In this document: one piece after another, positions 185 through 44,946 of the stretch | Position numbering within the stretch: position 1 is the first letter of the stretch | Layout: each line of letters begins with the position of its first letter | DNA from: a virus | Length of the DNA stretch: 50,875 bases | IMG/VR virus record: IMGVR_UViG_3300045988_097988 | Reading direction: 5' to 3' (one strand) | The notes under the pieces: generated by a model | Databases searched by the model: none | What the model was told of the DNA's origin: nothing | The model's input: only the letters and a program-made list of their open reading frames with translations | Program-made: the position numbers and the translations under genes

Positions 185-1318
185 CTACCCGTGAGCCTTT
201 TTGAGTGCCGCCGTCGTCGCCTCCGCCAGCTCCTCGCGCTGGCCCTGCAGCTCGTGGCGGTAGACGCCGAACGTGTCCATATTCCGGGAGTGGCCTACCA
301 GCATCTTGAGCTGGCCGTCCGTAAGCTCCCCGGCCTCGACGCTGACAAAGGTATGCCTCAGCTCGTAGAGAGTAATGCGCGGCGTGATACCGTTGCCGTC
401 TTGATACTTCTCCCACCGCCGCTTGAGTGACCGCTGGCATGGAATCTGGAACAGGGGCGTGTTGTAGTTGAGCTGGACGCCTGAGTCCTTGAGGAGCTGC
501 ACCTGAGCCTCGTATGCTTCCCGGGCCTGCTGGCACATATCAAAGCTGCGGATGCTGTTTTCATTTTTGCCCGTCGTCGTCTCGTCCTCGACGTTGACAC
601 TCCGCCGGAGGTTGACGGTGTTGCCCTTTATATCCCCGTACCAAAGGCCGACCAGCTCACCGGGGCGCAGGCCCGTAGAGACGGCGAAACGGTAGGCATA
701 GATATAATCATCAAAGATGTGTTTCGCGTACCATTTCCGGGTGTCAACCGAAAAGAGGGTGCGGAGAGCCTGCGGCTGCAAAATCTCCCTCTTTCCGACC
801 CGGGCATTTTTCGGGACGTCGAGGTCTGGATTCAGAGTCGTGTACTTATTCCGGCGGCACCATTTTACAAAAGCCTTTTCGGTGGAGCGAATAGTCGAGA
901 GCGTCTTTTTGCTCAACGGCGTATCGCCTGTGCGCTTTGCGCCCTTTTTGAGGCACCGCTTTTTGTATGACATATCGATGCACTTTTGCAAATCGCCCTC
1001 GGTCAACTCGTCTATGCGGAGATTCTCGATGACGGGCAGGATATAATAATCTCCGTATTTTGCGCACTGCTTGACGTAGGACGTGCCGCAGGTCAGCTTC
1101 AGTTCCTCGACCCACTCCCGGTAGAGTGGGCCGACCTTTTTCCTGCCATCCCGGATACTATCGTCAAGCCAAGCGTCCGCCTTTGCGTTCGCTTCCCGCT
1201 GCCCGGTACGGCCCGGAGTGCTGCTATAAAAGCTTTTCAGCACCCCGTTTTTCTGTACCCGGATGCGCCAGCGTTTTGTCTGTTCCTGCCACTCGGCTGT
1301 TGTTGTCCTCTTCCTCAA
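185..1318 (-). CDS. int: Tyrosine recombinase / phage integrase
   Basis: 377 aa. The C-terminal catalytic signature is present (LRPGE..., YELRHTF, GHS...GVYRHE). It is adjacent to attL. Confidence 0.9.
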   Translation of the reverse strand: MRKRTTTAEWQEQTKRWRIRVQKNGVLKSFYSSTPGRTGQREANAKADAWLDDSIRDGRKKVGPLYREWVEELKLTCGTSYVKQCAKYGDYYILPVIENLRIDELTEGDLQKCIDMSYKKRCLKKGAKRTGDTPLSKKTLSTIRSTEKAFVKWCRRNKYTTLNPDLDVPKNARVGKREILQPQALRTLFSVDTRKWYAKHIFDDYIYAYRFAVSTGLRPGELVGLWYGDIKGNTVNLRRSVNVEDETTTGKNENSIRSFDMCQQAREAYEAQVQLLKDSGVQLNYNTPLFQIPCQRSLKRRWEKYQDGNGITPRITLYELRHTFVSVEAGELTDGQLKMLVGHSRNMDTFGVYRHELQGQREELAEATTAALKKAHG

Positions 1319-4766: not shown

Positions 4767-4784
4767 TTGAGAGGAGATTTTTAC

Positions 4785-5333
4785 ATGAATGGTATGTTTT
4801 ATCGTGGGGAGATTTACTTTGTTCTCCCGGAGGGTAATGAGGTCGGAAGCGAGCAACGGTCAAACCGCCCCGGCATCATCGTCAGCAGCGATACCAACAA
4901 CAAATTTTCGACTACGGTGCAGGTAGTCTACCTGACGACCAAGGAAAAGAAGCCCCTTGCGACGCACGTTCATATCGAGACTGCAAAGCTGCCCTCTACG
5001 GCCCTCTGTGAGCAGATTTTTACCGTGGACAAGCTGCGTATGGATAGCTACGTCGGCAAGCTGACGCCCAAAGAGATGGAAGAGGTCGAGCGGAGCGTTA
5101 TGATTGCTCTTGGCCTCGACAACTACCTCTCTAAGCCTAAGACCGAGACGCCCGACTCTCCGGCGGCTGCCCAACCTCCGCTTCCTGCCGACGTCGTCAA
5201 GAGCTTTTCTTGGGAGAGCGAGAAGCAGCTTGCTGGGGGGGGGCTTGCCTCCCCGGAGCTTATCAGAGCTTATGCGCAGCGTGACGCCTACAAAGAGCTG
5301 CTCACAGGGATTTTGGAGCGGCGGAGAATTTGA
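4785..5333 (+). CDS. PemK/MazF-family toxin-like protein with a C-terminal extension of about 70 aa
   Basis: The sequence RGEIYFV...GSEQRSNRPGIIVSSD...VQVVYLTT...THVHI...ALCEQIFTVDKLRM matches the MazF/PemK fold signature. ATG at 4785 follows GAGAGGAG. Confidence 0.7.
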   Translation: MNGMFYRGEIYFVLPEGNEVGSEQRSNRPGIIVSSDTNNKFSTTVQVVYLTTKEKKPLATHVHIETAKLPSTALCEQIFTVDKLRMDSYVGKLTPKEMEEVERSVMIALGLDNYLSKPKTETPDSPAAAQPPLPADVVKSFSWESEKQLAGGGLASPELIRAYAQRDAYKELLTGILERRRI

Positions 5334-12081: not shown

Positions 12082-12381
12082 ATGGACAGAATTTTTTGTA
12101 CGAGGCTCAAAGCGGCCCGTATTGCGCAGGGCTTGACCGTGAGAGACCTTGCGCGGCGCGTCGGAACCGATATGCGGGTCGTGACGCTCTACGAAAACGG
12201 CGGGACGACGCCGGGCATCGAGGGCATCCGGGCCTTTGCTGAGGCTCTGGGCGTCTCGGCGGCTTATCTAGTTGACCGCGTACCGCCCCGCCGGGCGACG
12301 GTTTGCCCCTGTTGCGGGGCAGAGTTGGAGGGCAAAGAGAGGGGGGCGACGCATGACTTACCGCGAATTTCTGGAACGTAA
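12082..12381 (+). CDS. XRE-family HTH protein with a C-terminal CxxC
   Basis: LKAARIAQGLTVRDLARRVGTDMRVVTLYENG is an HTH_3 pattern. ATG at 12082 follows GAGAGGA. Confidence 0.6.
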   Translation: MDRIFCTRLKAARIAQGLTVRDLARRVGTDMRVVTLYENGGTTPGIEGIRAFAEALGVSAAYLVDRVPPRRATVCPCCGAELEGKERGATHDLPRISGT

Positions 12382-14857
12382 GATAGACGTCGCGCCCCTT
12401 TCAGGCATCGAGGTTGACCCCTCCGAGGTCAGCCCGGTGCTGAAAGACCACCAGCGCGTGAGCGTCCTTTGGGCCTTGAGAGGCGGACGCCGGGGAATCT
12501 TTGCCCGGTTTGGCCTCGGCAAGACGGTGATGCAGCTCGAATGGTGCCGCCTCCTGCAGAAACACGAGGGTGGACAAACCCTCATAGTGATGCCGCTCAA
12601 CGTAATGCCGGAGTTCCGGGCCGACGCCGTAAACCTGCTGGGCCTGCCGGAGCCGCCCTATTGCCGCACGATGGCCGAGGTCGAGGCCGCGAGCGATGCG
12701 CCTATTGTTCTGACCAACTACGAGAGAGTCAGAGACGGCGATATTGACCCGCACCGCTTCACGGCTGTAAGCCTCGACGAGGCGGCTACCCTCCGCAGCT
12801 TTGGCTCTAAGACCTACCAGAGCTTTGCGGTCAAGTTTAAGGGCGTCAAGTACAAGCTCACCAACACCGCGACGCCCTCGCCGAACCGCTACAAAGAGCT
12901 GATTCACTATGCGGGCTTTTTGGAGGTTATGGACACCGGGCAGGCCCTTACCCGATTTTTCAAGCGCGACTCAACCAAGGCCAACAATCTGACCCTATAC
13001 CCGGGCCGCGAGCGGGAGTTTTGGATTTGGTGCGCGAGCTGGGGCCTGTTCCTGCAAAAGCCCTCCGACCTCGGTTTTTCTGACGAGGGCTATTCGCTCC
13101 CGCCGATGGACATCAGATACCACAAGCTCACGAGCCTTGACCGCCCGGCGGAGTTTGAGGCAGACGGACAGATGAAACTCGGCCACGACGCCGCAATGGG
13201 CCTTTCGGACGCCGCCAAGGAAAAGCGGGACAGTATCGAGATTCGAGCTGCAGAGGTGGCCCGTATCATCGCCGAGGCCCCGCCGGAGGAGCATTTCGTC
13301 GTCTGGCACGACCTCGAAGACGAGCGCAGGGCCTTGAAAAAAGATGTCCCGGAGATGGTGGACATCTACGGCAGTATGGAGCTTGAGGCCCGCGAGCAGC
13401 GTGTTATGGATTTCGCGCAGGGCAAGACCCGTATCTTTGGCACAAAGAAATCTCTCTCCGGCTCTGGATGCAACTTCCAGCGGTTTTGTCACCGGGCAAT
13501 CTTTATGGGCATCGACTACGAGTTCAACGACTTCATTCAGGCCATCCACCGTATTTACCGCTTTTTGCAGACTGCCCCGGTTATTATCGACATCCTGTAT
13601 ATGGACACCGAGACCGAAGTGCTGCTGGCCCTCCAGCGCAAGTGGAAGCAGTACGATGAGTTGAGCAGCCAGATGGAGGAGATTATAAAACAATACGGCC
13701 TCGGGAGCCTTGCGCTTGAGGCCCTCAAGAGAACGATTGGATGTGAGAAAGTGGAAGTCAAGGGCAACAACTACACCGCAATCAACAACGACTGCGTGGA
13801 GGAGGTCAAGAGCTGGCCGACGGACAGCATCGACCTCTACGTCACCAGTATCCCGTTCGGCAACCATTACGAGTATTCGCCGTCTTACAACGATTTCGGT
13901 CACAACCCCAACGATGACGAGTTTTTCCGGCAGATGGACTACTTGACCCCGGAGCTGTTGCGTACTCTCAAGCCGGGCCGCGTAGCAGCTATCCACGTCA
14001 AGGACAGGGTCGAGTTTGCCAACGTGACCGGGCTTGCGGCTCCTACCATCGAGCCTTTCCACGCGGATTGCATCGCTCATTTCCGGCGGCATGGGTTTGC
14101 GTATTTTGGTATGATTACGGTGGTCACGGATGTCGTGCGGGAAAATAATCAGACCTACAGACTCGGCTGGACGGAGCAGTGCAAGGACGGTACAAAGATG
14201 GGCGTTGGATGCCCCGAGTATATCCTGCTTTTCCGCAAGCTGCCTACTGACCGCAGCCGTGGGTACGCCGACGACCCGGTGAAAAAATCCAAAGAGGAGT
14301 ATACCCGCGCCCGCTGGCAAATCGACGCCCACGCCTTTTGGCGTTCGAGCGGCGACCGTCCGTTTGCCCGCGAGGAGCTGGAAAAGATTCCGACCTCGAA
14401 GCTGCAGGCAGTTTACCGCAAGTTTAGCCGTGAAAGCGTCTACTCCTACGATGAGCATATCAAGCTGGCGGAGAGCCTCGACAAGGAAGGACGCCTCCCG
14501 AGTACGTTTATGGTCGTGGCCCCCGGCTCTTGGGATATGACCGTCTGGGACGACATCAACCGTATGCGGACGCTCAACACGACCCAGAGCCAGCGGCGGC
14601 AGAATCTTCACGTCTGTCCCCTGCAAATCGACATCGTGCAGCGGCTGATTGAGCGGTACAGCAACGAGGGCGAAGTTGTTGCTGACCCGTTCGCCGGGCT
14701 GTTCACCGTCCCATACGAGGCCGTGAAGATGAACCGCCGGGGTAAAGGCGTCGAGCTGAACCCCGATTATTTTAGAGACGGCGTGGGCTACCTTGAGGCC
14801 GCAGACGCGGAAAAGGACGCCCCGACCCTCTTTGACCTGTTGGAGAATGGAGCGTGA
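12353..14857 (+). CDS. SNF2/DEAD-like helicase domain fused to a beta-class N6A/N4C DNA methyltransferase
   Basis: Helicase motifs GLGKT, DEAA, TATP and QAIHRIYR are present. The C-terminal MTase has motif IV TSIPFG followed later by motif I DPFAGLFT (IV-before-I order). Confidence 0.75.
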   Translation: MTYREFLERKIDVAPLSGIEVDPSEVSPVLKDHQRVSVLWALRGGRRGIFARFGLGKTVMQLEWCRLLQKHEGGQTLIVMPLNVMPEFRADAVNLLGLPEPPYCRTMAEVEAASDAPIVLTNYERVRDGDIDPHRFTAVSLDEAATLRSFGSKTYQSFAVKFKGVKYKLTNTATPSPNRYKELIHYAGFLEVMDTGQALTRFFKRDSTKANNLTLYPGREREFWIWCASWGLFLQKPSDLGFSDEGYSLPPMDIRYHKLTSLDRPAEFEADGQMKLGHDAAMGLSDAAKEKRDSIEIRAAEVARIIAEAPPEEHFVVWHDLEDERRALKKDVPEMVDIYGSMELEAREQRVMDFAQGKTRIFGTKKSLSGSGCNFQRFCHRAIFMGIDYEFNDFIQAIHRIYRFLQTAPVIIDILYMDTETEVLLALQRKWKQYDELSSQMEEIIKQYGLGSLALEALKRTIGCEKVEVKGNNYTAINNDCVEEVKSWPTDSIDLYVTSIPFGNHYEYSPSYNDFGHNPNDDEFFRQMDYLTPELLRTLKPGRVAAIHVKDRVEFANVTGLAAPTIEPFHADCIAHFRRHGFAYFGMITVVTDVVRENNQTYRLGWTEQCKDGTKMGVGCPEYILLFRKLPTDRSRGYADDPVKKSKEEYTRARWQIDAHAFWRSSGDRPFAREELEKIPTSKLQAVYRKFSRESVYSYDEHIKLAESLDKEGRLPSTFMVVAPGSWDMTVWDDINRMRTLNTTQSQRRQNLHVCPLQIDIVQRLIERYSNEGEVVADPFAGLFTVPYEAVKMNRRGKGVELNPDYFRDGVGYLEAADAEKDAPTLFDLLENGA

Positions 14858-14861
14858 ACGA

Positions 14862-15071
14862 ATGAACCGCAACGCGGAACATTACCCCGACCCGACGCCG
14901 GGGGCCGCTTGGGAAAATATCTGCAAGGATGCCCGGCGGAAAGAAGCTGCGTCCCTCTTGCAAATTAGCATCTTGGTGCCTATCCTGCGCCAGATTGCGG
15001 ACTGGGCGGGCTTTGAGATTATCGGCAGAATCCCCCTGCGGGAGAAATCGACTGGAAAGGAGTTTCGGTGA
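14862..15071 (+). CDS. Small hypothetical protein
   Basis: ATG at 14862 lies after the stop of the upstream gene. N-terminus is NAEHYPDPTPG. Confidence 0.45.
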   Translation: MNRNAEHYPDPTPGAAWENICKDARRKEAASLLQISILVPILRQIADWAGFEIIGRIPLREKSTGKEFR

Positions 15072-15072
15072 T

Positions 15073-15567
15073 ATGGAACAGAAAGAGATTCAGGAGCAGC
15101 TTATTGCGACGGTTCGGGATATGCTTCTCACCTCCTGTGAGAAGATGGGGGCGCAGAGCATCGAGCATTGCTGGACGCGCCACGACGGTACGGAGGTCAA
15201 GCTGGGCCTCTCTATTCACCCGGCGGACGAAAAAGAGGAAGAAGAGCCGGAAGATGAGCTGTATACCTACGCCCGGGCCGCTGTAAAGAAATTCGGGATG
15301 GACAAGCAGGTAGATATGGCCATAGAGGAGATGACCGAGCTTACAAAAGCCCTCCTTAAACACCGCCGGGCGAGGGACTGCGAGACCGTTGTAAAGAGCG
15401 GCGACAATATCCGGGAGGAGATGGAAGACGTCCGAATTATGCTAGCCCAGCTCGATTGTATTTTCGGGCGTAGTCCTCAGTGGGCCGAGAAGAAGCTGGC
15501 GCACCTCAAAGAGCTGGTAGGGGACGAAAAGCCCGACCCGGAGGAAAGGGACAAGAGCGATGGCTGA
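15073..15567 (+). CDS. MazG-like nucleotide pyrophosphohydrolase
   Basis: AIEEMTELTKAL and REEMEDVRIMLAQLD are EExxE-type metal-binding helices. Confidence 0.6.
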   Translation: MEQKEIQEQLIATVRDMLLTSCEKMGAQSIEHCWTRHDGTEVKLGLSIHPADEKEEEEPEDELYTYARAAVKKFGMDKQVDMAIEEMTELTKALLKHRRARDCETVVKSGDNIREEMEDVRIMLAQLDCIFGRSPQWAEKKLAHLKELVGDEKPDPEERDKSDG

Positions 15568-16543: not shown

Positions 16544-17173
16544 ATGGTCAAGAAAATTCCCAAGCTGACAACCGGCAACCCGCAGGACAACTACCAGATG
16601 GCCCTCAACTTTACCGACATCGGGGAAGATGGATGGGTCTGGATGCGGAAGCCGGAGCGGACTTTGGTAGAGTATATGCGTACTCTCGTCAAAGCACACG
16701 GCGGCGATATTGACATCAACGGGGACGACTGCGCGGTGGGCGAAGATTTGGACGACCACCTCCTCGACGGCCCCGAAACTATCGACGGCCTGATTGCCGA
16801 ACATTATACCATCCTGTGGGCCTACGCAACGCTCAGGGAAAAGCTCAAGTGGTATGAGGACGCTGGCGTTCCGGCTATTCCGCCCGAGGGTCTGAAAACT
16901 ATCCAGCGGGCAGTAAATCGCGGTACGGGTTCCCAGCTTGAGCTTGCCTGCGAAGATATGGCAGACCTGATTCGCTTGGTGTGTAAGTACAATCGGCGGT
17001 TAAAGACCGCCCTGAAAGAAACTGAGGAGCTGCGGGCTATCCGCGACAGTATCCGGGACAAGACGGCAAGCGTTTATATTGCGCTGGCCTGCATCGTGGA
17101 TATATTCGGCAAGCCTGAGGACATCCAGCAGGCCGTCGCCGAGAAGCTCGACAACCGCAAAGACCTTATGTGA
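16544..17173 (+). CDS. Hypothetical protein
   Basis: 209 aa, tightly packed. Confidence 0.5.
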   Translation: MVKKIPKLTTGNPQDNYQMALNFTDIGEDGWVWMRKPERTLVEYMRTLVKAHGGDIDINGDDCAVGEDLDDHLLDGPETIDGLIAEHYTILWAYATLREKLKWYEDAGVPAIPPEGLKTIQRAVNRGTGSQLELACEDMADLIRLVCKYNRRLKTALKETEELRAIRDSIRDKTASVYIALACIVDIFGKPEDIQQAVAEKLDNRKDLM

Positions 17174-18175: not shown

Positions 18176-18224
18176 TGTACAAAATGCTCAAAATACGGCC
18201 CGGTTTTTCTACACGGCCCTGTAT

Positions 18225-18256
18225 TGTCGTTGTAGTGTCGTTGTATTGACGTTGCA
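18225..18256 (+). repeat. Three 11-bp-phased direct repeats TG(T/A)CGTTG(T/C)A
   Basis: TGTCGTTGTA at 18225..18234 and 18236..18245, and TGACGTTGCA at 18247..18256. The last overlaps a -35 TTGACG. Confidence 0.6.
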
Positions 18257-18275
18257 ACTAGCTATAAGCTAAAAT
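18246..18275 (+). promoter_or_regulatory. Candidate promoter for the non-coding RNA region
   Basis: TTGACG (18246..18251), 18-nt spacer, TAAAAT (18270..18275). Confidence 0.45.
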
Positions 18276-18388
18276 GCTACCAGCGCAACCGCGCCACGCG
18301 GCCACGCGCTAAAGCGAGAGAGGCACATCCGGCAGGGCCTGTAATGAAGTCGGCAGGCCCCGTCCCTCCACCTCCTCTCCCGTTGTAT

Positions 18389-18433
18389 AACAGCCCTCGC
18401 AAGGTTTAGGCCCCTTGAGAGCGGCTGTTTTTA
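18389..18433 (+). terminator. Long hairpin plus T-run, either an intrinsic terminator or a structural helix of the larger RNA
   Basis: AACAGCCCTCGCAAGG ... CCTTGAGAGCGGCTGTT followed by TTTTT. Confidence 0.45.
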
Positions 18434-18434
18434 T

Positions 18435-18506
18435 GCAGACGTATGAAATGACGGCGTGAGCAGCAGGCATAACGCCGAGGTGGTTTGATTCCGCCCGTTT
18501 GCACCA
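18435..18506 (+). ncRNA. tRNA-like module with a canonical acceptor/T-arm and encoded CCA but no D-arm
   Basis: The acceptor is GCAGACG/CGTTTGC (G4-U69). The T-arm is GGTGG-TTTGATT-CCGCC. The discriminator is A, followed by CCA. The anticodon stem CGGCG/CGCCG has a 16-nt loop, and only 10 nt stand in place of the D-arm. Confidence 0.4.
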
Positions 18507-18746
18507 AGCCGCCGCCAACCCCGCAAGGCGGCTATACTATACGCATGGCCCCATCAGCCACCGGGAGCTTAAATATTCCTTTCCTTTCGACCCTCTCTGA
18601 AAGTTACTCTGCATTTTCTCCTCCTCACGGCATATCCCAGACGGAGGCCCCGGAACGCCGGGCGGTTCGTGTTTTCCGCCAGCGTGTGCGTTAGAATCCC
18701 CCAAACCCCTTGACGCGCCCGACCAACGCGGCAAGGGGGACTATAA

Positions 18747-18880
18747 GCCGTTGTAGCTCAAGTAGAGCGGTGGGCATTTAACCCACGTCACATTGACGAT
18801 ACGCAAGAGCGGCCCCGCCCGGCCTGTCCCCGGGACGGATTGAAACTCTTGTGGTGCTGGTTCGAGTCCAGCCATCGGCT
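18747..18880 (+). ncRNA. Aberrant tRNA-like gene with a 69-nt structured insertion at the variable-arm position
   Basis: The acceptor GCCGTTG/CATCGGC has one T-T mismatch. The D-stem is GCTC/GAGC with a 5-nt loop. The anticodon stem GTGGG/CCCAC has loop CATTTAA (A at position 33, central UUU). The 18787..18855 insert folds as CAAGAG...CCCGG-loop-CCGGG...CTCTTG. The T-arm is GCTGG-TTCGAGT-CCAGC. No CCA is encoded. Confidence 0.45.
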
Positions 18881-18888
18881 CTTTATAT

Positions 18889-18954
18889 GCCGCCTAGCGC
18901 AATTTGGAGCGCGCTCGTGGGAGTAGCCACGGGAGGTTCGATTCCGATGGCGGT
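18889..18954 (+). ncRNA. Degenerate tRNA-like element (pseudo-tRNA?)
   Basis: GCCGCC/GGCGG(T) acceptor-like pairing, a GCGC/GCGC D-stem, a 7-bp stem CTCGTGG/CCACGGG with the 6-nt loop GAGTAG, and a TTCGATT T-loop with a poor T-stem. It is only 66 nt long. Confidence 0.3.
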
Positions 18955-18959
18955 TTTAT

Positions 18960-19035
18960 ACTCGGGTAGCTCAACAGGCAGAGCGGCGGTCTCCAAAACC
19001 GCAGGCTGGTGGTTCGATTCCATCCCTGAGTGCCA
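18960..19035 (+). tRNA. tRNA-Trp (anticodon CCA), phage-encoded
   Basis: Canonical cloverleaf. The acceptor is ACTCGGG/CCTGAGT. The D-arm is GCTC-AACAGGCA-GAGC. The anticodon arm is GCGGT-CTCCAAA-ACCGC. The variable loop is AGGCT. The T-arm is GGTGG-TTCGATT-CCATC. The discriminator is G, and CCA is encoded. Confidence 0.9.
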
Positions 19036-19072
19036 AGCAAAAAATATTCATATTCACGACGAAATTTCACCG

Positions 19073-19115
19073 AAAAGGCTGGACATTATACTCTAAACAA
19101 AGTATAGTAATAGCG
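19073..19115 (+). promoter_or_regulatory. Promoter/operator cassette, near-identical to 49458..49500
   Basis: TGGACA (19080..19085), 17-nt spacer, TATAGT (19103..19108). The operator TATACTC-N6-AAGTATA (19087..19106) lies in the spacer. 40 of 43 nt are identical to the 49.46-kb copy. Confidence 0.7.
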
Positions 19116-19156
19116 TAAGGAAAAGCCGAAAGGCTTGTAAGAAAGGAAGCGAGGAT

Positions 19157-19362: not shown

Positions 19363-19391
19363 ATTATACTATTTTTTCGGTAGCATTTCAA
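19363..19391 (-). promoter_or_regulatory. Minus-strand promoter TTGAAA-17-TATAAT
   Basis: On the plus strand, ATTATA is at 19363..19368 and TTTCAA at 19386..19391, with exact 17-nt spacing. Confidence 0.55.
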
Positions 19392-19418
19392 GCAGTCACA
19401 CAAAGTGGCTGCTTTTTT
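19391..19418 (+). terminator. Rho-independent terminator overlapping the -35 of the antisense promoter
   Basis: AGCAGTCAC / GTGGCTGCT stem (9 bp, one G-U), 5-nt loop, TTTTTT. Confidence 0.65.
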
Positions 19419-19446
19419 ATTTGCCGGAAGTTGGAGGAAAAGAACG

Positions 19447-19935
19447 ATGATTAGCAAAGAGCTGCTCAAGATGGCCGTCGCCGACCTAAAACCTTACGAA
19501 AACAACCCGCGCGTCATCTCCCCGGAGGCCGTCAACGCCTGCGCGGAGAGTATAAAGCAGTGCGGCTCCCTCGACCCTATCGAGGTGGACGAAAACAATG
19601 TCATCCTCAGCGGCCACACCCGCCGCCTCGCCTTGATGCAGCTCCACGTTGAGACCGCCGACGTCGTAAGGTACACGGGCCTGACCGACGAGCAGAAACA
19701 GAAATACCGCCTGCTGGCCAACAAAACGGGAGAGTTCACGGGCTGGGATTTCTCCAAGCTTGAGCGGGAGCTGAAAGAGGTCGATTTTGGGGATTTTGAC
19801 TTTGATTTTGACGGCGACATCCCCGACCCGACAGCCTCCGGCGCAGCGGAAGAGACCGCCCCGGACAGCTTCAAGGAGTACGACGAGGACATCAAGACCG
19901 AGCATAAATGCCCCGCTTGCGGGTACGAGTGGTGA
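19447..19935 (+). CDS. ParB-like nuclease-domain protein with a C-terminal zinc ribbon
   Basis: LKPYENNPRVISPEAV...IEVDENNVILSGHTRRLAL is the ParB N-terminal domain signature. The C-terminus is CPACGYEW. ATG at 19447 follows GGAGGAAAAG. Confidence 0.7.
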   Translation: MISKELLKMAVADLKPYENNPRVISPEAVNACAESIKQCGSLDPIEVDENNVILSGHTRRLALMQLHVETADVVRYTGLTDEQKQKYRLLANKTGEFTGWDFSKLERELKEVDFGDFDFDFDGDIPDPTASGAAEETAPDSFKEYDEDIKTEHKCPACGYEW

Positions 19936-19939
19936 AGAT

Positions 19940-21037
19940 ATGAGTGAGTATAAAATACCCTCTATGCGAGAGATAGAGGCCCTGCCGTGGAACGGCTACA
20001 AGGTCGTTTCGACATTCAGCGGCGGTGGCGGCTCATGTTTAGGATACCGCATGGCCGGGTATCACGTCATATACGCCAACGAGTTCGTGGAGGAGGCCCA
20101 GAAGACCTACCGCCTGAACCACCCGGACGCCTACCTTGACACGCGGGACATCCGCACCGTGACCCCGGAGAGCATTCTGGAAATCACCGGGATGAAAAAG
20201 GGAGAGCTTGACCTGTTCGACGGTTCGCCGCCTTGCTGTGCATTCTCTACCGCCGGAAGCCGGGAGAAAGGCTGGGGCAAGCAGCGGGCCTATTCTGACG
20301 GCAAGACCCAGCGCGTGGATGACCTCTTTTTCGAGTACATCCGCATTTTGGACGGCTTGCAGCCCAAGGCGTTCATCGCTGAGAACGTCTCCGGCCTTAT
20401 CAAGGGGACGGCGAAAGGATACTTTAAGCGTATCATGGCCGCCATGAAAGCCTGCGGGTATACCGTCAAGGCCGCGCTTATCAATGCCCAGTATTGCGGA
20501 GTACCGCAGAACCGGGAGCGCGTCATTTTCATGGGTGTGAGAAACGACCTCGGCCTTTCGCCCGTATATCCCGTGCCGAACCTGCCTGTTATCTCCCTCG
20601 GTGAAGCCCTTGACGGCGTAGTGAATGACCCGCGAGAGGTCGAGATGCTCAAGGCCAACGCCCGGAAATACCGCTGGGGCGACGTCCTGAGAAAGATACC
20701 TCCCGACCCGGACAAGCCCGTCAGCGGCTCTGCCGTAATGAACGGGAGCTATTTTAATCTGGTGCGGGAGTCGTTGTACTACCCGTGCAGCACCATTACC
20801 GCGAGCGGCGGCGGTACGTCGATAGCCGCCATGTGTCATCCGACCGAAAACCGCAAGTTTACTATCCCTGAGCTGAAACGTATTACAAGCCTGCCGGATG
20901 ATTTCATCCTGACGGGAGAGTTTGAGCAGCGGTGGGAACGCGCCGGGCGCATGGTGCCGCCTTTGATGATGAAAGCCATTTCGGAGACCTTGAGAGAGGA
21001 GGTGCTGGACAAGTGCCGGAAAAACGCGACAACTTAA
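19940..21037 (+). CDS. DNA (cytosine-5) methyltransferase-family enzyme with Arg replacing the conserved motif X Asn
   Basis: Motifs present are I (FSGGGGS), IV (SPPCCAFS), VI (AENVSG), VIII (QNRERV) and IX (RKFTIPELKRITSLPDDF). Motif X reads AGRMVPP instead of the canonical GN(A/S)VPP. The Arg codon CGC is at 20948..20950. Confidence 0.85.
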   Translation: MSEYKIPSMREIEALPWNGYKVVSTFSGGGGSCLGYRMAGYHVIYANEFVEEAQKTYRLNHPDAYLDTRDIRTVTPESILEITGMKKGELDLFDGSPPCCAFSTAGSREKGWGKQRAYSDGKTQRVDDLFFEYIRILDGLQPKAFIAENVSGLIKGTAKGYFKRIMAAMKACGYTVKAALINAQYCGVPQNRERVIFMGVRNDLGLSPVYPVPNLPVISLGEALDGVVNDPREVEMLKANARKYRWGDVLRKIPPDPDKPVSGSAVMNGSYFNLVRESLYYPCSTITASGGGTSIAAMCHPTENRKFTIPELKRITSLPDDFILTGEFEQRWERAGRMVPPLMMKAISETLREEVLDKCRKNATT

Positions 21038-21060
21038 AGCCGAGTGGGACGTGGAGATTT
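21033..21060 (+). repeat. 28-bp perfect direct repeat, copy 1 (spans the MTase stop codon and the cmoA N-terminus)
   Basis: CTTAAAGCCGAGTGGGACGTGGAGATTT is identical to 21619..21646. Confidence 0.9.
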
Positions 21061-21618
21061 GACAAGCAGGTTGCAGACTGCTTCGAGGATATGTTGAGCC
21101 GCTCTATCCCGGATTATCCCGTAATGAGAAACCTCGTGTACAGATTCGGCAGCAGAGTCTTGCGCGGCAGGCCCGCGCCTACCGTGGTAGACCTTGGATG
21201 CTCCAACGGCTTGGCCGTCCAGCGTTTCGCTGAGACGTTCCCGGATGCTCATTTCATCTTGAGGGACGTCTCGGAGGATATGGTACAGGCCGCGCGGGAG
21301 AGATACCCCGACGAAAGCCGTTTTGACATCGCCTGCGCCAACATCGCCGACGCCTACCCACTCTGTATGGCAGACCTTTGCCTTTTGGTATTGACCTTGC
21401 AGTTTACCCCGGTAGAGGAGCGGTAGGCCATCCTGCAAAAGGTATACCGCCGCATGAGGCCCGGCGGCGCACTCATTTTGGTGGAAAAGGTACTCGGGGA
21501 CGGCCAGAAAGCCGAGGAAGAGCTTACCGCCATCTACTACGACCTCAAAGAGGAACACAACTACACGCGGGAGCAGATAGCAGCAAAACGCCTCTCCCTG
21601 CGTCACGTCATGGAGCCG

Positions 21619-21646
21619 CTTAAAGCCGAGTGGGACGTGGAGATTT
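21619..21646 (+). repeat. 28-bp perfect direct repeat, copy 2 (cmoA C-terminal region, read in a different frame)
   Basis: Identical to 21033..21060. It is translated LKAEWDVEI here and LKPSGTWRF in copy 1. Confidence 0.9.
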
Positions 21647-21742
21647 TGCGCAAGGCGGGATTCTCTCACGTTTTCCAGTTCTGGCAGTGTCTGAATTTTT
21701 GCGGCTGGATTGCTTATAAGGACTGAAAGGGAGTGAGCAGCG

Positions 21743-41572: not shown

Positions 41573-43267
41573 ATGGCAACTGTGAACTTTCCCCGCGACA
41601 CTACGCTCAAAGACGGAATTTCCATGCAGGAACTCGCGGCCTGCGGCGGCTCCGCTCCCGGTGCTGCCGACCTGTGCTATAAGCGGCTGGTAGCCAAGGC
41701 GACGACCAAAGAGGAGGTAGATGCCCTCTTCGCCGAGTGGTGGCACGTCCAGTATGACGCCAGCAAGTACAGCAAGAGCCAGATGCTTGAGCGTTGGTTT
41801 GGTACGGTTCTGGACGACGACCGTGTTCACGGTTGCACCGTTCCGCTGTATGCTACCAGCACCAGTGCTATCGGCGAGCTGACCGATGACAGCGTTGGCC
41901 TCGTGGCTATCCCGTCCACTGAGTCTACGCCGGGCCGCGACGACTTCGCGCACCTGCCGCAGTTTTGGTGCGTCGAGGTTGCGGCTGAGAAAAAGGCCGA
42001 TGGCAGCCACGATATTTACTATGTGGAGCATATCGACGATTTGGCCGACGTGCGCAGCGGCGAGCATCTTTGCTGGGTGTTGCAGAAAAACACCTTTGTC
42101 CGCGAGTGGCGCGAGAACGGCTATCAGCTCCTGAAGATGCGCTGCCATCAGGCCCCCGGATACTCCCGCTGGCCGGAGGGCAAAGACCGCGCGGGCCACG
42201 TCTACGCATATATGGCCCATCCCAAGTACGCAGCGGGAAAGCTGGGCAGTAAGGTCACCTGTGGCACGGGTCTGGCCCCTGTCAACTATACCTCGCACAC
42301 CTCCGGCGTGACCCTCTGGCGCGCCCGTGGTGCGCAGTATTCCGGCGGCTCCGGCAGACTGCCGAAATTCCTTGACCGTATGACTCGCCTCAAGTACGCC
42401 CGGAAAGGCAATTCTGGCACCATCGAGGGCTGTACCTCCTATAACTACCAGTACAAGGCGGCGGTAGCCGAAACGGGCGTCAAGCGTTTTATCCTCACAA
42501 CTACTCAGGCCGCAAACCTCATCGTTGGCAGCGCGGTCTCTATCGGTACGGATACCGACGGCTCTACCGACCGCAACGTGGCGGACGTCCACGACATCGC
42601 CACCGAAATCCTCATTACCAAAATTGAGCCTGTCACCATCTCCGGCACCGAGTACGCCGCCGTGTACGTCAACGCGGAGAGTGGCTTTAATACCACCAAA
42701 GACCAGACTCTTATCAGCACCATGCCGTACTTCTCCGGCTGGAACGACAACGTGCAGGGCGTGGACGGAAGCCGCTACAGCGCGACCACGGGCCGCGAGC
42801 CTGCACTGCTGCAGAAAGTGGAATTTCAGAATGGCTCCTATCTCATCATCAGTGACGAGATTTGGCAGTGGGGCCAGAACGCCGCAGGTGATTATACCTT
42901 TGACTGCTACCGCTGCAAAGACCAGAGCAAGGTATCCGGCACGGCCATCACCGACGACTACGAGAAGATGGAGGGCCTGACCCTTACTTTCCCGGCCTCC
43001 GCCGGAACGTCTGGACGCTGGCAGTATATCGAGGATACCGACCCGGGCGAGGTCGAATGGCCATCTGGCGTCAATGCCTCGGGCAGCGGAGTCGGCTGTA
43101 AGGCCGGGTTCTACTGCTCTCCCGCCGCCTCGGGTCTCCGGGCTGGTTGGTGCTTCGCCAGCTTGTACGACGGCGGGCTTTGCGGTGTCTCTTGTCGCAA
43201 CTCGAACAACTCTCTCGGGTTCGCGTACTGGAACGGCTGCCTTGGCGCACCTGACATTGCCGGGTAA
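41573..43267 (+). CDS. DGR target protein: distal tail fibre / receptor-binding protein with a C-terminal variable region
   Basis: 564 aa. The last ~50 codons are the VR. It is the last tail gene. Confidence 0.85.
   Translation: MATVNFPRDTTLKDGISMQELAACGGSAPGAADLCYKRLVAKATTKEEVDALFAEWWHVQYDASKYSKSQMLERWFGTVLDDDRVHGCTVPLYATSTSAIGELTDDSVGLVAIPSTESTPGRDDFAHLPQFWCVEVAAEKKADGSHDIYYVEHIDDLADVRSGEHLCWVLQKNTFVREWRENGYQLLKMRCHQAPGYSRWPEGKDRAGHVYAYMAHPKYAAGKLGSKVTCGTGLAPVNYTSHTSGVTLWRARGAQYSGGSGRLPKFLDRMTRLKYARKGNSGTIEGCTSYNYQYKAAVAETGVKRFILTTTQAANLIVGSAVSIGTDTDGSTDRNVADVHDIATEILITKIEPVTISGTEYAAVYVNAESGFNTTKDQTLISTMPYFSGWNDNVQGVDGSRYSATTGREPALLQKVEFQNGSYLIISDEIWQWGQNAAGDYTFDCYRCKDQSKVSGTAITDDYEKMEGLTLTFPASAGTSGRWQYIEDTDPGEVEWPSGVNASGSGVGCKAGFYCSPAASGLRAGWCFASLYDGGLCGVSCRNSNNSLGFAYWNGCLGAPDIAG
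43102..43250 (+). repeat. DGR variable repeat (VR)
   Basis: 149 bp aligned to the TR at an offset of +281. The 8 mismatches (43112, 43119, 43161, 43166, 43179, 43220, 43221, 43226) all correspond to A in the TR. Confidence 0.9.
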
Positions 43268-43280
43268 AGAGCGGGGTGAA

Positions 43281-43321
43281 TTGCCCGGGCGGTGCCGGGC
43301 AAGAGGGGCAGCAGGCCCCTC
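43281..43321 (+). promoter_or_regulatory. Two GC-rich hairpins downstream of the VR (DGR target-recognition hairpin and/or terminator)
   Basis: TTGCCCGG-GCGGTG-CCGGGCAA at 43281..43302. GAGGGGC-AGCAG-GCCCCTC at 43303..43321. Confidence 0.6.
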
Positions 43322-43382
43322 ATTGACGATATTCGGATTTTTATAAAACCCCGAAAATAAAAAGGGTACTATAGCGTAAAGG

Positions 43383-43531
43383 GGCCGGGTTCAACTGCTA
43401 TCCCGCCGCCTCGGGTCTCCGGGCTGGTTGGTGCTTCGCCAACTTGAACGACGGCGGGCATTGCGGTGTCTCTTGTCGCAACTCGAACAACTCTCTCGGG
43501 AACGCGAACTGGAACGGCTGCCTTGGCGCAC
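43383..43531 (+). repeat. DGR template repeat (TR)
   Basis: It carries AAC/TAT/CAT codons where the VR has TAC/AGC/TTC/TCT/CTT. Homology to the VR ends at GGCGCAC. Confidence 0.9.
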
Positions 43532-43677
43532 TGGTGCATAAAATAGGCGAATTATTTCATCGCGTTATAGTATCCTCGCTTATGTGCGAAAATTGCCTGA
43601 AACCGACAGCGGCTGGTACCTCCGGGGAAGGCTGCTGGTAGCAACCAGATGATTTAACAGAAAGGTGGATTATTACG

Positions 43678-44946
43678 ATTTCGAGATGCAAACCGTCTGA
43701 GGTAAATATCGAGTCGGCCAAGTTTAACCTGCCCGCCGTCTTCAAGGCGTTCAGCAAGGGAAAACTGGGCCGGGGCGGCTTCCGGCGGGAACTTATCGGG
43801 ACTGGCTACATTACAAAGCAGGAGCTGGCTCTTGAGAGGCTGGACAAGCACGGCTGTATGCCTAAGACGGCCCGCGCAATCCGCGCCTATAATGAAGAGC
43901 TGACGGCCTGCATTGTAAGCCGGAAACTTGACCTAAAACCGATTCGCTGCTTTCAGCGGGTAGACGGCCTGACGCAGAAGCTCCGTGACATCTGCCAAGA
44001 AAGCCCGAAACAACAGGTTTTGGAATATATCGCGAGAGAGGCGCTGCATCCGCTTTTCCGGGCCAAGCTCTTGCACATCCAGTACGGGAGCATCCCCGGA
44101 CGCGGCCAGACCCTCGGCAAGCGGAAAATCGAGCGGATTCTGCGGAAGAAGCTCAAGTGCAAAACAGACGTCGTAAAAGGCGACGTCAAGAAAGCCTATC
44201 CCTCCGTGACCGTCGAGTGTGTGATGAAGCTCCTCCGCCGGGACATCGGCAAGAACAAGACTCTTTTGTGGTTTGTCGAGGCCCTGATGGAGAATTACCC
44301 CGGGCAGCACCTCTGCATCGGCTCCTACCTCTCCACATGGCTCTTTAATTATGTGATGTCCTACGTCTTGCGGTATATCCAGAGCCTCGGGCAAATCCGC
44401 CGGGGGAAGCTGGCGCGGTACGTCAAAGCTATCGTCTGCTACGCGGACGATTTTTCACTCTTTGGCCGCTTTTCACAGCTCACAAAGGTGATACGCAAGG
44501 CGACGCGCTGGGCGTTGGACGCACTCGGCCTCCGGCTCAAGCCTATGTGGCAGGTCTACCACATCGCCTCTTTCGAGAGCGAGCGGAAGCAGGCCGTACA
44601 GAGAGCCGCCGGGCGGCATCAAAGGACGCCCGCCGTGGACATGGTGGGGTTTGAGGTTCGCCGAACCTATACTATCATCCGTCCTCGGGTTTTCCGACGT
44701 ATCCGCAGGCAGGCGCTCCGAGCCTTGGGCGATTTGGCAAAGTACGGGCTTCTCCCGTGGTGGCGAGCCGCCCGCATTTCGGCGTATAAGGGCTGGGTCA
44801 AGCATTCTGACAGCATCCACTTTTCTGAAAAATACGACTTCCCACGGCTGATGCGGCTTGCGCAGAAGAGCGCGAGCTGGCACGGCAGAAAGGAGATTAT
44901 CGAGCATGAGCAAAGAATTTTACACGAAGCAGCCCTCTGCGGTTGA
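43678..44946 (+). CDS. DGR reverse transcriptase, probable ATT start
   Basis: YADD catalytic motif (IVCYADDFSLFG) and the CIGSYLSTW motif. The conserved N-terminal block FNLPAVFKAFSKGK lies upstream of the first ATG (43858). The frame opens at 43642. ATT at 43678 is 9 nt after AAAGGTGG. Confidence 0.8.
   Translation: MSRCKPSEVNIESAKFNLPAVFKAFSKGKLGRGGFRRELIGTGYITKQELALERLDKHGCMPKTARAIRAYNEELTACIVSRKLDLKPIRCFQRVDGLTQKLRDICQESPKQQVLEYIAREALHPLFRAKLLHIQYGSIPGRGQTLGKRKIERILRKKLKCKTDVVKGDVKKAYPSVTVECVMKLLRRDIGKNKTLLWFVEALMENYPGQHLCIGSYLSTWLFNYVMSYVLRYIQSLGQIRRGKLARYVKAIVCYADDFSLFGRFSQLTKVIRKATRWALDALGLRLKPMWQVYHIASFESERKQAVQRAAGRHQRTPAVDMVGFEVRRTYTIIRPRVFRRIRRQALRALGDLAKYGLLPWWRAARISAYKGWVKHSDSIHFSEKYDFPRLMRLAQKSASWHGRKEIIEHEQRILHEAALCG

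Follow-up and report, generated by a model that had tools for sequence, protein, structure and literature searches.

Can a natural phage carry, side by side, the synthase of a carboxylated cofactor and a DNA methyltransferase fitted to its use, and does the copy at hand still work? This question is raised by a cassette of three genes at 19447..21726 of the viral record IMGVR_UViG_3300045988_097988 from IMG/VR, the whole stretch of which, i.e., 50,875 nucleotides (nt), is hereafter called the window. In the initial annotation, the cassette was read as a ParB-like gene, an atypical C5-cytosine methyltransferase (MTase) with Arg instead of Asn in motif X, and a homologue of CmoA, together forming a candidate natural system for 5-carboxymethylcytosine (5cxmC) in DNA. 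All the features listed in that annotation are indeed found where it had placed them. On the present analysis, the cassette is, with a probability of about 0.8, a CmoX/CmoA system for 5cxmC whose window copy is disabled, or at the least short of cofactor. As for the initial proposal, its mechanism matches the one described by Yang et al. (Nat Commun, 7 Dec 2025, PMC12783734), but the novelty it implied does not stand, since the writing of 5cxmC is already published and the window cassette adds another member to the family. A mechanism experimentally established in late 2025 was nonetheless re-derived from raw sequence alone.

The system of reference is the CmoA-CmoX-CmoY system of the Synechococcus phage S-B43 (Yang et al., PMC12783734), in which SpCmoA makes carboxy-SAM (Cx-SAM) from S-adenosylmethionine (SAM) and prephenate, SpCmoX writes 5cxmC at GC sites, accepting only Cx-SAM and not SAM, and SpCmoY, a homologue of asparagine synthetase, ligates glycine to 5cxmC; the S-B43 virion carries 5-glycylcarboxymethylcytosine (5gcxmC), not 5cxmC. 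In the crystal structure, Arg350 of SpCmoX, which replaces Asn304 of HhaI, contacts the carboxymethyl group of Cx-SAM, and the R350N variant is inactive (PMC12783734). This Arg mirrors the engineered M.MpeI N374K, an earlier writer of "unnatural" 5cxmC (PMC12783734), in agreement with what the initial annotation had stated of the motif X switch of M.MpeI to Cx-SAM. The window cassette is laid out as follows:

19390..19422, + strand: terminator-like hairpin and T-tract, just upstream of the cassette (consensus scan only)
19447..19935, + strand: ParB-like gene, 162 amino acids (aa) (open reading frame; PHROG 620; orthologue profile against the PDB)
19940..21037, + strand: homologue of CmoX-type DNA cytosine C5-carboxymethyltransferase, 365 aa (PF00145; PDB 8YF3)
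20225..20236, + strand: SPPC motif S96-P97-P98-C99, with the catalytic Cys codon at 20234..20236 (aligned to SpCmoX S95-P96-P97-C98)
20948..20950, + strand: Arg337 codon CGC, in motif X G-R-M-V-P-P (aligned to SpCmoX Arg350)
21013..21726, + strand: cmoA, Cx-SAM synthase homologue, 237 codons, interrupted in the window copy (TIGR00740, PHROG 4752, 4GEK)
21033..21060, + strand: 28-nt direct repeat, copy 1, across the CmoX stop codon and the cmoA 5' end
21424..21426, + strand: in-frame TAG, i.e., the CAG(Gln138)-to-TAG nonsense allele (CAG in relatives)
21589..21591, + strand: CmoA Arg193 codon, downstream of the TAG, equivalent to E. coli CmoA Arg199 (alignment AAKRLSL / SQKRSML)
21619..21646, + strand: 28-nt direct repeat, copy 2, near the cmoA 3' end

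The three + strand genes are tightly packed, with 4 nt from the stop codon of the ParB-like gene to the start codon of CmoX, and a cmoA that starts with GTG and overlaps the 3' end of CmoX by 25 nt, as first annotated. The candidate terminator hairpin upstream, seen in a consensus scan only, has a 10-pair stem followed by TTTTATTT.

Judged by its sequence, the window MTase is a clear CmoX homologue. It matches PF00145 over model positions 1-322 of 324 (E=9e-55), and its translation contains all the C5-MTase motifs that had been listed for it, namely FSGGGGS, SPPCCAFS, AENVSG, QNRERV, the motif IX block and, with the CGC codon read where the Arg had been placed, ERAGRMVPP as motif X. Its top match in the PDB is 8YF3, i.e., SpCmoX (E=1.3e-88), with 164/333 identical residues (49%), while ordinary 5-methylcytosine (5mC) enzymes score far lower in the same search, e.g., HaeIII at ~1e-25 and HhaI at ~1e-13. 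The residue equivalences can be read directly in the alignments: GRMVPPLMMKAI in the window CmoX is identical to residues 349-360 of 8YF3, with Arg337 facing Arg350, and HaeIII has G-N where the window CmoX has G-R; the Cx-SAM contacts F25, E47, F48 and D69 of SpCmoX correspond to F26, E48, F49 and D70, and its S95-P96-P97-C98 corresponds to S96-P97-P98-C99. Moreover, G-R is found in motif X of 19/19 IMG/VR relatives recovered with the CmoX protein, at 42-99% identity. The window CmoX thus shares with the orphan C5-MTases of HaeIII/HhaI type the fold, the catalytic Cys and the ENV and QxRxR motifs, but differs from these 5mC enzymes in motif X, with G-R versus G-N, and in its linkage to cmoA. 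Like M.MpeI N374K, it has a basic residue in place of the motif X Asn, the change that switches M.MpeI to Cx-SAM; unlike this engineered CpG enzyme, where the residue is Lys, it is a natural protein with Arg, and of another subfamily, matching M.MpeI 4DKJ at only E=2.5e-5.

The overlapping gene had been described as collinear with CmoA, and this holds over practically its whole length: its product matches the CmoA model TIGR00740 over positions 12-239 of 239 (E=1e-41), PHROG 4752 (E=2e-65; labelled "tRNA methyltransferase") and E. coli CmoA 4GEK (E=2e-31, aligned end to end). Byrne et al. single out Arg199, salt-bridged to the carboxylate of Cx-SAM, as the hallmark of CmoA proteins (PMC3663124); this residue aligns with R193 of the window (AAKRLSL / SQKRSML), and equivalents of Tyr39, Asp62, Asp89 and Phe137 of the E. 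coli protein are kept as well. The window CmoA, aligned end to end and with its Arg199 equivalent kept, belongs to the same Cx-SAM synthase family as E. coli CmoA (4GEK/4IWN). Unlike in the bacterial CmoA/CmoB pathway to uridine 5-oxyacetic acid (cmo5U) in tRNA, there is no CmoB in the cassette, and the consumer of the cofactor would be a DNA C5-MTase homologue; the similarity to CmoA also stays under the NCBIfam equivalog threshold.

A linkage between cmoA and MTases with Arg in motif X had been put forward as something to be looked for in related phages, and it is directly observed. The order ParB-like/CmoX/CmoA recurs in five IMG/VR relatives (L005, L010, L012, L013 and L015), with identities to the window of 64-69% for CmoX, 44-46% for CmoA and 38-47% for ParB, and a CmoX-CmoA pair is found in a sixth (L009). 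On a larger scale, Yang et al. retrieved 5,615 CmoX candidates, defined by SPPC and R350, from IMG/VR, UniProt and MGnify, the contigs of which yielded 4,257 CmoA, 2,251 ligase and 1,660 ParBc sequences (PMC12783734). As in S-B43, the window cmoA adjoins the gene of a C5-MTase homologue in which both SPPC and an Arg in motif X (R337 for R350) are present and, as in many contigs of this survey, there is a ParBc-type neighbour. Among 50,697 records of deposited phage genomes, blastn recovered no close relative, only weak MTase/ParB matches, the best match being the Streptomyces phage TurkishDelight (67.5% over 22% of the query). The related IMG/VR contigs do not occur in the searched supplement text of Yang et al. 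(PMC12783734), and nothing beyond this paper was found in the literature on CmoX, on CmoA together with ParB, and on methylases of Faecalibacterium phages.

By analogy with S-B43, in an intact cassette CmoA would convert SAM and prephenate into Cx-SAM. CmoX would then follow ordinary C5-methyltransferase chemistry, where Cys99 would attack C6 of a flipped-out cytosine, and since Arg337, in place of the motif X Asn, would bind the carboxylate of the cofactor, a carboxymethyl group would be transferred to give 5cxmC on phage DNA. Such a mark would shield the phage DNA from restriction. As for the ParB-like protein, it is probably a DNA-binding or loading partner.

The reading frame of the window cmoA is interrupted by one in-frame TAG, at codon 138 (21424..21426), as the initial annotation had cautioned. 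That this codon was originally CAG, as it had supposed, is borne out by four IMG/VR relatives (~97.5% nt identity) and seven contigs with identical CmoX, which have CAG at the same position; close relatives have a full-length cmoA of 237 aa, and E. coli CmoA has Gln at this position too. Because a truncated CmoA product of 137 aa is present on 4 of the 13 contigs carrying an identical CmoX, the TAG is a real, circulating CAG-to-TAG nonsense allele. A one-off sequencing error is ruled out by the same four contigs, and the source contig has a coverage of ~55x according to the record name. Recoding or suppression of TAG is ruled out as well, since TAG functions as a stop elsewhere in the prophage, where it ends the portal gene and another gene, since close relatives read CAG, and since no suppressor tRNA was found with ARAGORN and Rfam, which, apart from a tRNA-Trp(CCA), showed only an odd tRNA-like element whose anticodon is UUU. 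Together with the 25-nt overlap of cmoA with CmoX, this nonsense allele sets the window apart from S-B43.

Two further observations touch the same gene. The C at 21424 that was changed lies within a GC dinucleotide (GGCAGG), GC being the motif modified by SpCmoX; that deamination of a modified cytosine contributed to the change from CAG to TAG is pure speculation. In two otherwise near-identical IMG/VR relatives (L002 and L003), cmoA codon 85 encodes Gly (FILRGVSEDM versus FILRDVSEDM) in place of the Asp that is the counterpart of Asp89, the ribose-binding residue of E. coli CmoA, and this is possibly, from the alignment, a second inactivating variant of cmoA in the same lineage.

The window is identical to part of the ENA contig ERZ1745321 NODE_395, which runs on into pyrH, frr, uppS, cdsA, dxr, rseP, ispG and a gene for a polC-type polymerase, and the flanking Dxr, IspG and RRF each match exactly a protein with the name Faecalibacterium. 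The element is thus integrated, with Faecalibacterium as its host. From an integrase gene at one end, the prophage runs through RecT/SSB/RecU, the modification cassette, terS/terL, portal, protease and capsid, then through sheath and baseplate, a diversity-generating retroelement and lysis genes, and it has the look of a complete temperate prophage of a contractile-tailed, myovirus-type phage. Whereas S-B43 is a cyanophage, the window belongs to a temperate prophage whose host is a gut Firmicute. For Gram-positive bacteria, 5-methoxyuridine (mo5U) via TrmR, and not cmo5U via CmoA/CmoB, has been reported (PMC6599085), and in the Faecalibacterium host Cx-SAM probably comes from the phage CmoA alone. 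The TAG copy is probably unable to modify DNA, because its cmoA is broken, the Gram-positive host probably lacks Cx-SAM, and SpCmoX rejects SAM.

Several points weigh against reading the cassette in this way. Against TIGR00740, the window CmoA scores 143 bits, whereas 193 bits are required for an NCBIfam equivalog, and Asn132 of E. coli CmoA is not conserved in any phage CmoA compared. That the host is devoid of Cx-SAM is only probable, by analogy with tRNA modification in Gram-positive bacteria at large. Furthermore, five relatives (L007, L008, L011, L014 and L017) have ParB-CmoX with GRMVPP but no cmoA within the fetched flanks, the terminase genes coming directly after CmoX, and because of such relatives CmoX may sometimes use another source of cofactor.

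The latter relatives also bear on the rival explanation that survives best, i.e., that the cassette is fully functional in the window copy, the TAG being an artefact, being read through, or being compensated by Cx-SAM from the host, so that in each case the phenotype would be unaffected by the nonsense codon. In E. coli, the host CmoA alone can indeed supply the cofactor to SpCmoX in vivo (PMC12783734), and over 714 cmoA bases the TAG is the sole difference of the window from three relatives (L026, L027 and L029). This explanation is nonetheless unlikely, considering that an artefact would have to recur on four separate contigs and in a source contig of ~55x, that readthrough agrees poorly with a codon ending the portal gene and another gene of the prophage in which no suppressor tRNA was found, and that a supply by the host is at odds with the TrmR route reported for Gram-positive bacteria (PMC6599085).

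What the intact cassette would make is a further matter. Among the open reading frames scanned across 1..50.8 kb, no ligase of CmoY type, AMP-forming, asparagine-synthetase-like or ATP-grasp, was found and, on this ground, bare 5cxmC is the predicted end product; unlike S-B43, the window prophage is thus without a CmoY ligase and is predicted to make bare 5cxmC versus 5-glycylcarboxymethylcytosine. A second explanation, compatible with a CmoX/CmoA system, holds that 5cxmC is only an intermediate, which an unrecognised enzyme of the prophage, other than a homologue of CmoY or asparagine synthetase, elaborates further. It draws on the 5gcxmC of the S-B43 virion (PMC12783734), on the many prophage reading frames without family assignment and on the ParB/Srx fold, which includes ATP-using enzymes, sulfiredoxin and a free serine kinase being among the weaker PDB matches of the ParB-like profile. 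Yet no AMP-forming or ATP-grasp family is seen in any reading frame scanned, and with a ligase for only 2,251/5,615 CmoX candidates, ligase-less systems are common (PMC12783734), so that further elaboration appears improbable.

The least tenable explanation, an ordinary SAM-dependent 5mC orphan methylase beside an unrelated auxiliary cmoA-like gene, e.g., one tuning host tRNA modification, can appeal to the complete set of canonical C5-MTase motifs and to the "tRNA methyltransferase" label of the cmoA-like PHROG, but is hardly credible given that the carboxymethyltransferase 8YF3 is by far the closest solved structure, that the carboxylate-binding Arg is present in every relative, that SpCmoX rejects SAM (PMC12783734), that the cassette has no cmoB, and that the adjacency of cmoA and CmoX with overlapping frames is conserved across divergent phages.

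Returning to the CmoX/CmoA cassette, its third gene deserves attention. The initial annotation of a ParB-like gene immediately upstream of CmoX agrees with PHROG 620 ("ParB-like partition protein"; E=6e-48) and with a profile of 10 orthologues which, compared with the PDB, retrieves the N-terminal domains of Noc, ParB and Spo0J, the best at E=1.5e-8. As a single sequence, the protein has no match in Pfam at E<=0.01, hence its assignment requires a profile or PHROGs, Pfam being insufficient. For all three genes of the cassette, the matches are, by their E-values, well outside what chance would give. It has a ParB/Srx N-terminal fold (PF02195-type) with the motif G56-H57-T-R59, and a C-terminal tail, T-x-H-x-C-P-x-C-G-Y-E-W, which is invariant among orthologues only 34-49% identical overall. 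This tail may serve as a docking peptide or as the half-site of a zinc knuckle.

The 28-nt repeat CTTAAAGCCGAGTGGGACGTGGAGATTT is present in two perfect copies, at 21033..21060 and 21619..21646, with 0 expected by chance; the copies stand in different reading frames, and both encode conserved CmoA residues. It is confined to the phage lineage of the window, and one possibility for its origin is intragenic gene conversion. A conserved functional site, such as a ParB site, is unsupported, the repeat being absent from all more distant cmoA loci.

As for its location, the cassette stands directly upstream of the genes for the small and large terminase subunits. Anti-restriction methylases of phages typically adjoin terminase genes. 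Elsewhere in the prophage, the following features were recorded:

185..1318, - strand: integrase, one end of the prophage
4767..5333: MazF/PemK toxin
12272..14857: 861-aa protein with an N6/N4 DNA methylase domain and a weak, sub-threshold helicase C-terminal match (PF00271, E=9e-4)
14929..15567 and 16544..17173: two MazG-like nucleoside triphosphate pyrophosphohydrolases
18747..18880: tRNA-like element, 134 nt (Rfam tRNA, 40.6 bits; uncalled by ARAGORN)
18960..19035: normal tRNA-Trp(CCA), beside the tRNA-like element
41573..44946: diversity-generating retroelement
43858..44946: reverse transcriptase gene of the retroelement

In the tRNA-like element, the variable region is enlarged by an insertion of ~60 nt, the anticodon is UUU and position 33 is A; the stretch of ~1.2 kb around this element and the tRNA-Trp (18180..19150 generally) contains no convincing open reading frame. 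In the retroelement, the variable repeat (43102..43250) lies at the 3' end of a gene for a 564-aa tail-fibre-like protein, and all of its mismatches to the template repeat (43383..43531), i.e., 8/8, are adenines in the template.

Beyond the window, a scan of IMG/VR with a CmoA profile returned 442 contigs, and the neighbourhoods were compared for the best 80 loci. In only ~17 of these does CmoX adjoin cmoA, while ~60 present a conserved trio, namely a PHROG 5475 protein ("unknown function"; 505-520 aa), a PHROG 32036 protein (~150 aa) and cmoA (e.g., L043:1600-5693 and L055:2281-5711), in a slot just upstream of terS/terL as for the CmoX cassette. In the PHROG 5475 protein, two ParB-like domains are accompanied by a C-terminal domain in which the motifs DFGAG, FEPY and NSVPF are conserved. 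This C-terminal domain has no sequence match in Pfam or the PDB; in an AlphaFold2 model (pLDDT 86.9, pTM 0.78), it adopts a class I SAM-methyltransferase fold, and Foldseek searches with the model gave E-values of ~5e-5 to 1e-3 and target-normalised TM-scores up to 0.60. The family extends to 592 or more relatives, all entered simply as "ParB N-terminal domain-containing protein" or "hypothetical". Candidate N6-adenine or N4-cytosine carboxymethyltransferases linked to CmoA were not found by Yang et al. (PMC12783734), beyond whom no other CmoA-ParB link was met in the literature searched. The PHROG 5475 fusion could be a second Cx-SAM-dependent DNA-modifying enzyme, which is to be taken as a lead and not as a finding; according to this survey of the best 80 loci, the published picture, where cmoA typically stands beside CmoX, may be incomplete.

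With the window cassette, the CmoA/CmoX family is extended to a temperate phage of Faecalibacterium, a keystone commensal of the human gut. A broader proposal, which can only be tentative as a whole, is that in ligase-less prophages of gut Clostridia free 5cxmC is the final mark of the virion, with the ParB-like protein as the obligate loader of CmoX and the CAG and TAG alleles as natural on/off variants. If it is true, free 5cxmC, so far seen only in recombinant systems, would be a final and negatively charged mark of virion DNA, the ParB-like protein with its CPxCGYEW tail would be the obligate DNA-loading partner of CmoX, and the CAG and TAG alleles of cmoA co-circulating in otherwise identical Faecalibacterium prophages would be natural variants with the modification switched on or off. 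Intact and nonsense alleles of cmoA, found side by side, offer a natural genetic control for the role of 5cxmC in the phage.

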